Position numbers and translations under genes: made by a program. Below, piece after piece: positions 28,238-34,893 of a stretch of DNA of 64,000 nucleotides; positions within the stretch are counted from its first letter, which is position 1, and every line of letters starts with the position of its first letter. The notes beneath the pieces are model-generated. The model was not told the DNA's origin. It worked only from the letters and a program-made list of their open reading frames with translations, and did no database searches. The DNA is taken from positions 32,001 through 96,000 of IMG/VR virus record IMGVR_UViG_3300014204_000129; one strand, given 5' to 3'. The stretch is from a virus (lineage: Duplodnaviria; Caudoviricetes).

Positions 28238-30367
28238 TTATACTAACATCCATTGTCTACCTGCTAGAGGATCACCAGCAGGACCCGTAGCCCCTTGTAT
28301 ACCAGTACGTCCAGTTATACCCTGGCTACCTTTACTTGCAGTAGAGGCTACAATATGTTCATTATTATTAAACATAGCAGCAGAAGACCCAGTATAGGAC
28401 AATGCTACTACCCAGTAAGTTCCAGCATTATAATAACCAGTAATTGTACCATACCAAAATCTTCCTGGAGCCTCCCAACTAAATAACCGTATATTAGCGT
28501 AGTTACTAGTATTCCAGAACTGATACATATTATCACCATTATAATCATAAAAGTGAACATACATAGTAGTTACACTACTGGGAGTAGCACTATTAAATCT
28601 GAGAAAGCCACTGCCAGGATCACCTGCGGATGTATTATCACTAAAAGTATAATCGGTAGAGAAGCCACCAAAGCCGCCCCTATTACCAGTTTGCCCAACT
28701 AACCCAGTTATGCCCTGAATGCCCGTTACACCTTGAAGTCCTGTTATTCCTTGAACACCAGTAGCCCCTTGTAAACCAGTTAAACCTTGTATACCTGTAG
28801 TACCTTGAGCGCCGGTACGTCCAGTACTCCCCTGAATTCCGGTTCTACCAGTTACGCCTTGTACTCCAGTTGCACCTCTTGGACCAGTAGCCCCTGTTAT
28901 ACCTTGGACACCTGTCACTCCTTGCACGCCTGTAATACCTTGGCTACCAGTAACGCCCTGGATACCCGTAGTTCCTTGGACCCCGGTGCTACCTTTGATA
29001 CCCGTTATACCCTGGCTACCTGTCTCGCCTATTAAGCCAGTCTCACCTTGGGTCCCTTGTTGCCCAGTCTCTCCCTGGTCTCCAGTAATACCTTGCAAAC
29101 CCGTAATACCCTGAGCACCTGTTGTGCCCACAATTCCAGTTATTCCCTGAGCGCCAGTAGTGCCTTGGAGACCAGTTATGCCCTGCACCCCAGTTTCACC
29201 AATAAGCCCAGTTTCTCCCTGAGGTCCAACCTCTCCGGTTATTCCTTGGATTCCTGTCTCACCTTGTATCCCAGTGACGCCCTGTACTCCGGTAACCCCT
29301 TGAGAACCAGTAACTCCTTGGAAACCTGTTGTACCTTGCAGTCCGGTATTACCTCGAACTCCAGTTATACCCTGTAAGCCGGTTATACCTTGTATACCAG
29401 TAGTTCCTTGCGTCCCTGTCTCACCCTGTGGACCAACTTCACCAGTTACGCCTTGTTCACCAGTGATACCTTGTTGACCTGTGACTCCTACCTGACCTGT
29501 CTTGCCTTGAGCACCAGTTGTTCCAATAAGCCCAGTAACGCCCTGAAGACCAGTAACACCTTGTATACCATCACTCCCTGTTACTCCAGTCTCACCTTGA
29601 AGACCCGTTATACCTTGGTCTCCAATCTCTCCAGTGATACCTTGGAGTCCAGTCTGTCCTTGTACTCCTGTGGTTCCAATCTGGCCTGTTTCTCCTTGCG
29701 TCCCTGTCTTACCCTGTAACCCGGTAACTCCCTGAGAGCCTGTGATGCCCTGTTGTCCGGTTGTGCCTACAAGTCCGGTTATGCCCTGCACTCCTGTAAC
29801 GCCTTGCTCTCCTGTTATCCCCTGGATGCCTGTGCTGCCTTGAGAACCTGTACTACCAGTGGCACCTGTTGCACCAACTATCCCCGTTATGCCTTGTAAG
29901 CCAGTTACTCCTGTTTCTCCAATTAAACCAGTTACACCCTGAGTACCTGTTTGGCCTTGAACTCCGGTCACTCCCTGAATACCAGTGCTTCCTACTAAGC
30001 CTGTTTCGCCCTGTATACCTGTTATTCCCTGCTGTCCAGTAGTACCAATTATTCCAGTGGCTCCCTGAACACCTGTAGTACCTTGAATACCAGTGGTGCC
30101 TTCTACTCCAGTTTCACCTTGAAGGCCAGTAGTTCCAGCTACTCCGGTAACTCCTTGAACTCCTGTTGCACCTACTTCACCAGTTATACCTTGGGTACCT
30201 GTTATACCAAGGCCAGTTACACCCTGAGTTCCGGTTACTCCTTGTATGCCGGTAACACCAGGCAAACCCGTAGCTCCTTGGATACCCGTTTCACCTTGGG
30301 TACCTGTTTGCCCAGTAAGCGTTATCCAGGCATCATTAGTGGCATTCCTTACCTTCCATATTGGCAT
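28238..30367 (-). CDS. collagen-like fibre protein
   Basis: long Gly-X-Y tract followed by a globular C-terminal domain. Confidence 0.92.
28679..30313 (-). repeat. ~180 Gly-X-Y triplets with G-x-T-G-x-Q periodicity
   Basis: direct translation; one G-L dipeptide interruption; almost no Pro. Confidence 0.92.
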
Positions 30368-33628: not shown

Positions 33629-34893
33629 TCTAAGACATTATTATCATACTGCGCGACATCAAAGTAGAACTGGCCATACTTACCCATAAGATACTTATTA
33701 GTAACTTCAATAATACTATCATTTACTTTAGTATCTTTCTTAGTATGGTACACAACGTGAGGAACTATGCCAATCCTATAGCCACGCTTACGTATCTCAA
33801 CTGAGTAAGAGGTATCTACTGCGGTATTGCCATCAGGGAGAGCCTGGTCAGGGACTATGTCACCAACGAGGGTGCTGTCTACTAATATAAAGTAACCTGT
33901 GGCCCACTTAGTCTCTCGTAACTGTAGTCCACTTACGTTATAGCCATTCTTTATCCAATCAGGATCAAAGGTAGAATAGACATGCGCTGCTGCCCACTTA
34001 TTTTGTATAAGGGCTTTTATAGCATCCTTTATAGTATCTTTGTGTAAGAATTGTATATCATCATCAAGGAATATCCAGTATCGTTTGTTCGTAGCTAAGA
34101 AGTCTTGCCTAAGTAGTTCCATATTAATATTTATAGGGCCATCATTTACTTTAACAATAAATGGTACATTAGATAGATACTTCTTTACTGAGTCTAATAG
34201 TGTTGGTAGATATGTAGTACGATTGGTAAATGTACCCATTACTACATCATCAGTAAAGCACGCCCCTACGTCGGGCAGGGGCTTCCTTGCAAATACAAAC
34301 GCCGATGGTGTGCCATACCCATCATAATTATAACTATCAATAATCTCATATCCTATATTAACAAGAAGATCTGTCAATGACTTTAATGTGTGCCCTGACA
34401 TATGAACCTGCCCCAGTTCAAAAGGTTCATCCTCAGTAGGATTAATTACCTGATCACTCATCTGGCAACCATATATAGTATATATAGCTTTAGTCCACTG
34501 GTCGCCCTCAGTACTCTCTAGGAACCATTTCATACAGAGCTCTATATCTGGAACACCAAGCTCTAATGTTCCCCCTGGAGCCAGAATATCGAACCAATGC
34601 CTAAGTGTTCTTTCTATACTACGCTGAGGCAGATGCTCCAGACCGTGCTGTGCTATAATCTCATCCATAGAGTCGTGTGGATAAGGCAGATTTCGCATAT
34701 CACATAGTAGATCTGCTTTATCACACGCTATATCAATATTGATATAATTATCTAGGTGTACACTGCCGCAGCACAGGTGTAGTCTACGTTCACGGTTTCC
34801 TGGTTTAAACCACTTTTCACGTTGCCAGGCCACAAGTTTATTTCTATTCTCTAACAACTCATTCGTTATATACATACCACACTCCTGTATCAA
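33616..34893 (-). CDS. class I SAM methyltransferase + GT2-like glycosyltransferase fusion
   Basis: LHLCCG..YINID, H.LEHL, L.PGG.L..VPD; C-terminal FLDDDI. Confidence 0.85.
   Translation of the reverse strand: MIQECGMYITNELLENRNKLVAWQREKWFKPGNRERRLHLCCGSVHLDNYINIDIACDKADLLCDMRNLPYPHDSMDEIIAQHGLEHLPQRSIERTLRHWFDILAPGGTLELGVPDIELCMKWFLESTEGDQWTKAIYTIYGCQMSDQVINPTEDEPFELGQVHMSGHTLKSLTDLLVNIGYEIIDSYNYDGYGTPSAFVFARKPLPDVGACFTDDVVMGTFTNRTTYLPTLLDSVKKYLSNVPFIVKVNDGPININMELLRQDFLATNKRYWIFLDDDIQFLHKDTIKDAIKALIQNKWAAAHVYSTFDPDWIKNGYNVSGLQLRETKWATGYFILVDSTLVGDIVPDQALPDGNTAVDTSYSVEIRKRGYRIGIVPHVVYHTKKDTKVNDSIIEVTNKYLMGKYGQFYFDVAQYDNNVLEWKV

Follow-up and report, generated by a model that had tools for sequence, protein, structure and literature searches.

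The DNA analysed here, referred to as the window in the following, is a stretch of 64,000 nucleotides that corresponds to bases 32001-96000 of the 111-kb IMG/VR record IMGVR_UViG_3300014204_000129 (Caudoviricetes; about 75% complete). Its late region contains three adjacent genes, which encode a methyltransferase/glycosyltransferase fusion, a second fusion enzyme with two glycosyltransferase (GT) domains around tetratricopeptide repeats (TPR), and a collagen-like fibre. We refer to this trio as the cassette and propose that its two enzymes probably glycosylate the fibre. The features of the cassette, and a third enzyme gene that lies apart from it in the head module, are as follows:

34893..34921 (-), sigma-70-type promoter, a perfect TTGACA-17-TATAAT, directly upstream of the first enzyme gene
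33616..34893 (-), gene P0003 for a methyltransferase/GT-A fusion of 425 amino acids (aa) (Pfam Methyltransf_11/23/25; AlphaFold; fold search)
34279..34806 (-), class I S-adenosylmethionine (SAM) methyltransferase domain, residues ~30-205 (Pfam, fold matches)
33619..34251 (-), GT-A domain, residues ~215-425, with a conserved FLDDD (DxD) motif (AF2 model, fold search, alignment)
30368..33628 (-), gene P0002 for a GT2-TPR-GT4 fusion with intein, 1086 aa (Pfam, alignment to an inteinless orthologue)
33104..33616 (-), GT2 (GT-A) catalytic domain with a DAD motif (PF00535, E 1.4e-16)
32561..33103 (-), TPR domain, the presumed acceptor-binding module (Pfam TPR_1/2/8, residues 181-293)
31787..32560 (-), N-extein part of the GT4 (GT-B) domain, ending in ...QESF (Pfam, fold matches)
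30641..31786 (-), LAGLIDADG homing intein of 382 aa, residues 615-996 (Pfam LAGLIDADG_3, Intein_splicing, Hint_2)
30368..30640 (-), C-extein of the GT4 domain (CLTGLE...) and stop codon (alignment to an inteinless orthologue)
28238..30367 (-), gene P0001 for the collagen-like fibre, 709 aa (Pfam Collagen, E 1.3e-88)
28661..30313 (-), main collagen region, residues 19-569, 183 triplets with Thr and Gln alternating at Y (script count)
28331..28660 (-), non-collagen globular domain, residues 570-679, followed by 7 more triplets (sequence; related domains occur in other phage collagens)
51821..53194 (-), GT2/methyltransferase fusion, the third enzyme, between the portal and the protease-capsid genes

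The three open reading frames (ORFs) of the cassette follow one another on the minus strand (33616-34893, 30368-33628 and 28238-30367), and the likely true starts of the two enzymes are the ATG codons at 34875 and 33616, respectively. At the first junction, the stop codon of the first enzyme overlaps the likely ATG of the second in a TAATG; at the second, the TAA stop codon of the GT2-TPR-GT4 gene abuts the ATG of the collagen gene with zero spacer. Given these two junctions and the perfect promoter, which has a GGAG and an ATG downstream of it, the promoter, both enzyme genes and the collagen gene look like one transcription and translation unit. Perfect TTGACA-N17/18-TATAAT promoters occur three times in the window (18398-18426, 34893-34921 and 61304-61333), each time on the minus strand and thus on the strand of the genes, where 0.08 would be expected by chance; three or more were reached in none of 100 shuffles. 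Each of the three heads a gene block, which would imply a host with canonical sigma-70 recognition. An earlier note on this stretch, made from the sequence alone, had described a methyltransferase-GT2 and a GT2-TPR-GT4 gene coupled directly to a collagen gene. We found the reading frames as it gave them and the domains confirmed by Pfam and PHROGs, while the promoter, the gene-joining overlaps and the intein are absent from its description.

The fibre is a bona fide collagen-like protein: both Pfam and PHROGs recognize it, and it scores 291 bits against the PF01391 cut-off of 27.2, with 171 consecutive triplets. By script count, it has 190 Gly-X-Y triplets, 12 and 171 of them around a two-residue break and 7 near the C-terminus. 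Their Y positions are mostly alternately occupied by Thr (94/190, 49%) and Gln (67/190, 35%), Lys is found at just one of the 190, and the collagen part has only 6 Pro. At 0.286 nm per residue, residues 19-569 would span about 158 nm. These values bear out the earlier estimates of about 180 triplets with Thr at roughly every second Y position, of almost no Pro, and of a fibre of about 150 nm. The N-terminus resembles a short pre-collagen segment of other phage collagens. The globular domain recurs, sometimes several times, inside long phage collagens (loci L159, L171 and L173 of our set). We found no second collagen gene in the 111-kb record.

The GT2 domain of the second enzyme is related to glycosyltransferases that act on proteins or peptides. 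Its sequence matches in the PDB include GmaR (E 2.8e-15) and SunS (E 4e-12), which, like ThuS, is a peptide S-glycosyltransferase, and the motif D80-A81-D82, invariant in the GT2-TPR family, is kept in the window. The closest inteinless orthologue, from locus L120, is about 50% identical to the window extein and yielded a confident AlphaFold model (pLDDT 92, pTM 0.84), in which GT-A, TPR and GT-B are packed as one unit, with helical repeats at residues 165-356. In fold searches, the GT-A and helical part of this model retrieved SunS and ThuS. For the TPR and GT-B part, the top matches were SPINDLY and OGT, a likeness at the level of architecture only (root-mean-square deviation ~24 A, TM ~0.3), and the isolated GT-B domain is nearer to GT4 enzymes, sucrose-phosphate synthase and BshA among them. 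Membership in GT4 is likewise indicated by matches to Pfam Glyco_transf_4 and Glycos_transf_1 and by an E-x7-E motif that is restored across the intein junction. Neither enzyme has transmembrane segments, and both are predicted to be soluble.

The intein is inserted inside this E-x7-E motif, and an inteinless orthologue aligns across the exact junction. It has the hallmarks of a class 1 intein, namely Cys1 (CCHP...VHNC), a terminal His-Asn, a Cys at position +1 and both LAGLIDADG blocks; in Pfam, LAGLIDADG_3 scores above and Intein_splicing below the cut-off. As judged from its position, the GT4 domain could be active only after splicing. Of 110 residues that are invariant in the family, the extein retains 101, among them the DAD motif and both Glu of E-x7-E. 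Homologous inteins occupy exactly the same site in two divergent cassettes (L119:6755-7912, 42% identity; L089:4701-5870, 40%), which suggests intein homing among glycosyltransferase alleles.

In the first enzyme, the GT-A domain is weak in Pfam, yet clear in the AlphaFold model (pLDDT 89.7) and in fold searches, where the protein matches both SAM methyltransferases and GT-A enzymes. Homologues of the first enzyme number about 100, share 40-57% identity with it and are nearly all metagenomic. Not every relative has the methyltransferase domain: the first gene of several lineages encodes GT-A only, and in L089 the order is GT-A followed by methyltransferase.

Evidence for the fibre as a substrate comes from these relatives. 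When contigs from viruses, genomes and metagenomes were scanned with an alignment of first-enzyme homologues, 94 loci were obtained; clustering at 90% identity reduced them to 62 clusters, and the complete enzyme pair is visible in 34 of these. A collagen gene starts at most 200 nt downstream of the pair in 25 clusters; in 3 more, one or two genes intervene and the distance is 0.5-1.3 kb. As two clusters have less than 250 nt of downstream sequence and are uninformative, collagen follows the enzymes in 28 of 32 informative lineages; this is the co-occurrence check across phage genomes that the earlier note had called for. The linked collagens are all of Thr/Gln types, and Pro is essentially absent from their Y positions. 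The cassette loci range in GC content from 0.35 to 0.58, and the other structural proteins of the window found no match in them at E 1e-5. More distant GT2-TPR genes (27-35% identity) mostly have no collagen nearby, and for this reason the linkage appears to be a property of this GT2-TPR clade rather than of phage GT2 genes generally. The gene ahead of the cassette in two loci is that of a lambda-J-like central tail fibre, which would place the collagen in a side-fibre slot.

Two further observations concern the linked collagens. Most of them (L028, L033, L034, L040, L043, L044, L046, L056 and L123) start with a 22-aa segment, MPS..G.L.K.RLV.EI[AS], which may be a docking or recognition peptide and is absent from the window fibre. 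In a 469-kb jumbo phage (L002:9293-20885), a single 875-aa MTase-GT2-TPR-GT9 protein (MTase, methyltransferase) is encoded immediately ahead of a collagen that exceeds 2786 aa and has 550 triplets with 44% Thr and 40% Gln at Y.

The linked collagens also differ in composition from others. The median fraction of Thr at Y is 0.38 in 31 cassette-linked collagens, against 0.18 in 21 distinct phage collagens that are not linked to it (Mann-Whitney p 9e-6); the comparison ignores phylogeny, and the choice of seed peptides biased its control set. This enrichment would fit Thr as the acceptor residue. On this evidence, we consider it likely, with a probability of roughly 65%, that the collagen fibre is the main substrate of the cassette, and that the latter is a late transcription unit, complete in itself, for making a glycosylated tail fibre. 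In the order of the enzymatic steps we place much less confidence than in the fibre as the substrate, and we infer it as follows. In the host cytoplasm, the TPR domain would hold the nascent or folding Gly-X-Thr chain, while the SgtA/GmaR/SunS-like GT2 would transfer a first sugar from a host UDP-sugar, most likely UDP-N-acetylglucosamine (UDP-GlcNAc) or a UDP-hexose, to the hydroxyls of Thr at Y. The fused GT4 and the separate GT-A domain would then add further sugars, one of which might be O-methylated where a functional methyltransferase domain is present. The product would be a trimeric fibre of ~158 nm with up to 94 glycan sites per chain. Its glycan probably aids the folding or stability of a Pro-poor triple helix free of hydroxyproline (Hyp), given the precedent of (Gly-Pro-Thr)10, which folds only when galactosylated (PMC11923368), and it may alter the surface properties of the fibre for adsorption or protection.

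The earlier note had proposed much of this scheme. Its idea that the phage enzymes glycosylate the fibre is strongly supported by the linkage in the 28 lineages, by the relatedness to protein glycosyltransferases, by the analogy with SgtA-BclA3 discussed below and by the Thr enrichment. The methyl cap it envisaged fared less well, as the methyltransferase is optional in relatives and its motif I is altered in the window.

As to the sugar supply, neither epimerase/dehydratase (PF01370) nor nucleotidyltransferase (PF00483) genes for nucleotide-sugar synthesis were found in the record, in a check of these two families that is not exhaustive. Within this scope, the earlier statement that sugar-nucleotide genes are missing holds across the 111 kb, and it would fit the use of common host UDP-sugars. 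Some cassette lineages probably use rarer sugars, because a nucleotide-sugar 4,6-dehydratase is encoded right after the cassette in one of them (L063:14053-15123).

The third enzyme lies where the earlier note had placed a third GT-MTase gene, in the head module, and has only a handful of homologues. A GT-A + Methyltransf_24 gene located after a collagen gene (L031:18909-20015) shares only 23% identity with it (E 2e-5). Another locus has a GT2-MTase gene between the enzyme pair and the collagen (L123:11308-12573), whose product has no detected sequence similarity to the head-module protein. By analogy alone, the latter could be assigned to the fibre pathway; it may act on head proteins instead.

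The limits of the Thr comparison are among several points that weigh against the fibre as the substrate. The cassette is known here from genes alone, and its source phage is uncultured. In four clusters, no collagen gene lies next to the enzyme pair (L049, L063, L066 and L120, where L120 offers only 387 nt of sequence past the pair). In the reverse direction, a collagen-seeded search returned 37 phage loci, whose collagens are mostly Gln-rich and Thr-poor. None of the 37, including the Thr-rich L150-L152, carries the full cassette within 10 kb of the collagen, which suggests that the cassette is no general requirement for Pro-poor phage collagens. The best NCBIfam model for the GT2 domain is the SunS family TIGR04195, with 52.9 bits against an equivalog cut-off of 350, so that the domain is best described as a SunS homologue, not as a member of the SunS family. 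The comparison with SgtA is one of published domain architecture. In the first enzyme, motif I (34765-34782, -) reads LHLCCG instead of the LHLG[SC]G of the family, which makes the activity of the methyltransferase in the window uncertain; Cys replaces the first Gly, which is conserved in 26 of 27 homologues, and is unique among the 28 aligned sequences. Finally, the fold matches of this domain mix protein, small-molecule and sugar methyltransferases and do not establish that a sugar is methylated.

The unusual motif I could also mean that the cassette is decaying, with the intein-split GT4 and the atypical methyltransferase inactive and the fibre unmodified or singly glycosylated. The interruption of E-x7-E by the intein and the change of 9 of the 110 family-invariant residues point in the same direction. 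However, none of the reading frames is broken, 101 of the 110 invariant residues persist, as do those of DxD and E-x7-E, the intein retains its splicing residues and both endonuclease blocks, and related inteins persist at the same site in two other lineages. We regard decay as quite unlikely. Somewhat less so is the notion that the enzymes glycosylate other virion proteins, such as the capsid, the tail tube, the LamG/BclA_C-like protein or the Ser/Thr-rich 119-aa protein described below, and lie near collagen only via a shared variable fibre region. This would be in line with the third GT2-MTase in the head module, with the four lineages that lack an adjacent collagen, with the mycobacteriophage glycans on capsid and tail-tube C-termini that are mentioned, by citation, in PMC12619734, and with the description of fibre regions as variable islands that hold glycosyltransferases (PMC7029224). 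Mere sharing of an island is, however, at odds with a collagen that follows the enzymes in 28 of 32 lineages whose flanks have no detectable similarity to those of the window, with zero-spacer coupling to the collagen start, with the Thr enrichment and with an adjacency that is clade-specific and mostly missing around distant GT2-TPR genes. All things considered, we find another virion protein an unlikely main target.

Fibre-island glycosyltransferases are usually read in the literature as modifiers of the host surface (PMC7029224, PMC10202952), and GT4 and GT-A are generic domains of enzymes that build sugar polymers. The cassette enzymes could accordingly be taken to remodel host envelope glycans, for receptor masking or superinfection exclusion, or to build a polysaccharide, leaving the fibre uninvolved. 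But they have no transmembrane or secretion features, their GT2 relatives with TPRs modify proteins or peptides, their genes form part of a late structural unit and are coupled to that of the fibre, and the collagen linkage is conserved; we therefore judge this improbable. Glycosylation of the phage DNA against restriction, although phage glycosyltransferases are well known for glucosylating DNA according to work cited in PMC12619734 and PMC10202952, is the least probable reading by far: no ThyA-like (thymidylate-synthase-like) hydroxymethylase was found in the record, the cassette lies outside the replication module, and the TPR and methyltransferase fusions as well as the collagen linkage would be left unexplained.

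Starting from a glycosylated fibre, one can also think of a bolder scheme, which we offer tentatively and hold to be possible rather than probable. Here, the trio would be a mobile 'glyco-fibre cassette' with its own promoter, exchanged among phages that are not related. Its TPR domain would serve as a single central clamp and present the collagen chain to two catalytic heads, a GT-A as in SgtA and SunS on one side and, on the other, a GT-B that follows the TPR as in OGT and FlmG. Glycosylation of Thr would be required for the Hyp-free helix to fold, as a viral alternative to prolyl hydroxylation.

The wider setting of the cassette is that of a phage late region: from ~17.6 to 64 kb of the window, the genes lie on the minus strand, in the order intein-bearing large terminase, portal, GT2/methyltransferase, protease-capsid fusion, tail genes and then the cassette stretch. 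Between the head module and the cassette are a 1098-aa ORF in the tape-measure position, for which no family match was found, and several unannotated tail genes. The large terminase gene (54711-57359, -) has an intein-like insertion at residues ~322-561, with endonuclease and RNR-intein PHROG matches, so the phage appears to have at least two inteins, in the terminase and in GT4. The 773-aa protease/major capsid fusion (49452-51773, -) has its nearest cultured relative in Microcystis phage Mae-JY22, at only 31% identity. Against cultured phages, blastn of the cassette region found nothing beyond one short collagen match, and tblastn of the enzyme gave domain-level matches alone, with at most about 30% identity over the longer ones; the cassette region is without close cultured relatives.

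Several neighbours of the cassette, in the window and elsewhere, deserve mention. Upstream of it lies the gene for the Ser/Thr-rich 119-aa protein (34905-35264, -). In a near-identical strain (84% identity), its counterpart P0112 has 464 aa through an intein/homing-endonuclease insertion, a third intein target in the lineage. We considered that a fibre gene might have been split by the cassette, but this is unsupported: a search for homologues of the 119-aa protein fused to collagen found none, and the N-terminus of the collagen is already like the pre-collagen segment of other phage collagens. Two genes downstream of the collagen (26024-27880, -), a 618-aa protein combines a Laminin_G_3 domain with a weak BclA_C-like (TNF/C1q-like) C-terminus. 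The GC content of its gene is 0.53, compared to 0.415 for the window, and it may be a recently acquired receptor-binding protein. In L120, an ORF beside the cassette (L120:13421-13798) has a Gly-rich, P-loop-like N-terminus.

Collagen-like fibres are common in phages, and how their Pro-poor, hydroxyproline-free helices fold and remain stable is an open question; whether glycosylation of Thr precedes the folding of collagen is stated to be unknown (PMC11923368). The cassette offers a small, tractable system for such questions, with two enzymes, one substrate and common host donors, all expressible in E. coli. Should our reading be true, glycosylated fibres would be widespread in uncultured phages and form a hidden layer of surface chemistry, which would matter for adsorption, for stability in the environment, for recognition by antibodies and for engineered collagen materials. 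The annotation of glycosyltransferases from phage fibre islands as modifiers of the host surface or of DNA may then be mistaken.

While we found no description of a phage collagen/glycosyltransferase system in the literature searched, several known systems share parts of it. A viral parallel in terms of substrate is mimivirus L230, a virus enzyme that acts on a virus-encoded collagen. However, L230, like animal LH3, relies on a 2-oxoglutarate lysyl hydroxylase and on Lys at Y, whereas the cassette proteins show no oxygenase domain in Pfam and the window fibre is nearly devoid of Lys at Y. Mycobacteriophages are a precedent for phage glycosyltransferases that modify their own structural proteins, with glycans reported on capsid and tail-tube C-termini (Freeman et al. 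2023, as cited in PMC12619734); going by that citation, the targets there are not collagen fibres. In OGT, SPINDLY and FlmG, TPR precede a GT-B domain, as in the second half of our fusion, but OGT and SPINDLY superimpose poorly and the phage GT-B is nearer to GT4 enzymes.

The best solved relatives of the GT2 domain are GmaR and SunS/ThuS (SunS being from Bacillus SPbeta), in which helical repeats follow the GT-A domain. GmaR is the flagellin O-GlcNAc transferase of Listeria, for which the TPR domains have been proposed as the acceptor-binding module (PMC9638930); in FlmG, TPR domains bind the acceptor protein (PMC7591256). Unlike the phage enzyme, GmaR modifies flagellin and carries an antirepressor domain, and SunS attaches S-linked glucose to Cys of a bacteriocin. 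BclA of B. anthracis and B. cereus, on the other hand, resembles the fibre in its Thr-rich collagen region, which bears short O-glycans including the methylated sugars anthrose and cereose (PMC12357932), and the 618-aa protein downstream of the cassette has its weak BclA_C-like C-terminus. The sugars of BclA come from dedicated nucleotide-sugar operons, of which the phage record has no sign in the two families checked. The peptide (Gly-Pro-Thr)10 is triple-helical only with galactosylated Thr, and viral collagens are enriched in Thr triplets (PMC11923368).

The closest known system is SgtA-BclA3 of C. difficile. SgtA, a protein of 358 aa with a GT-A domain (aa 1-260) and four TPRs, is encoded immediately upstream of bclA3; in vitro, it transfers beta-O-GlcNAc from UDP-GlcNAc onto Thr in collagen-repeat peptides such as TGATGLIGPTGATGA, with Thr at Y, and further extension and capping of the glycan are reported for native BclA3 (PMC7157674). 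The phage pair shares with it a soluble GT-A followed by TPRs, a gene next to collagen and Thr at Y. It differs in that SgtA belongs to a spore system, in that the phage GT2-TPR is fused to GT4 and has a methyltransferase/GT-A partner gene as well as an intein, and in that the BclA3 peptides contain GPT and GAT, whereas the phage collagen alternates between Thr and Gln and is almost free of Pro. Calling the cassette a new system, as the earlier note did, is therefore too strong, as TPR-linked GT2 enzymes acting on Thr-rich collagen-like proteins are already known from spores and virion glycosylation from mycobacteriophages. What is distinctive is the widespread three-gene form, and by analogy, the cassette would be the phage counterpart of SgtA-BclA3 in this distinct arrangement.

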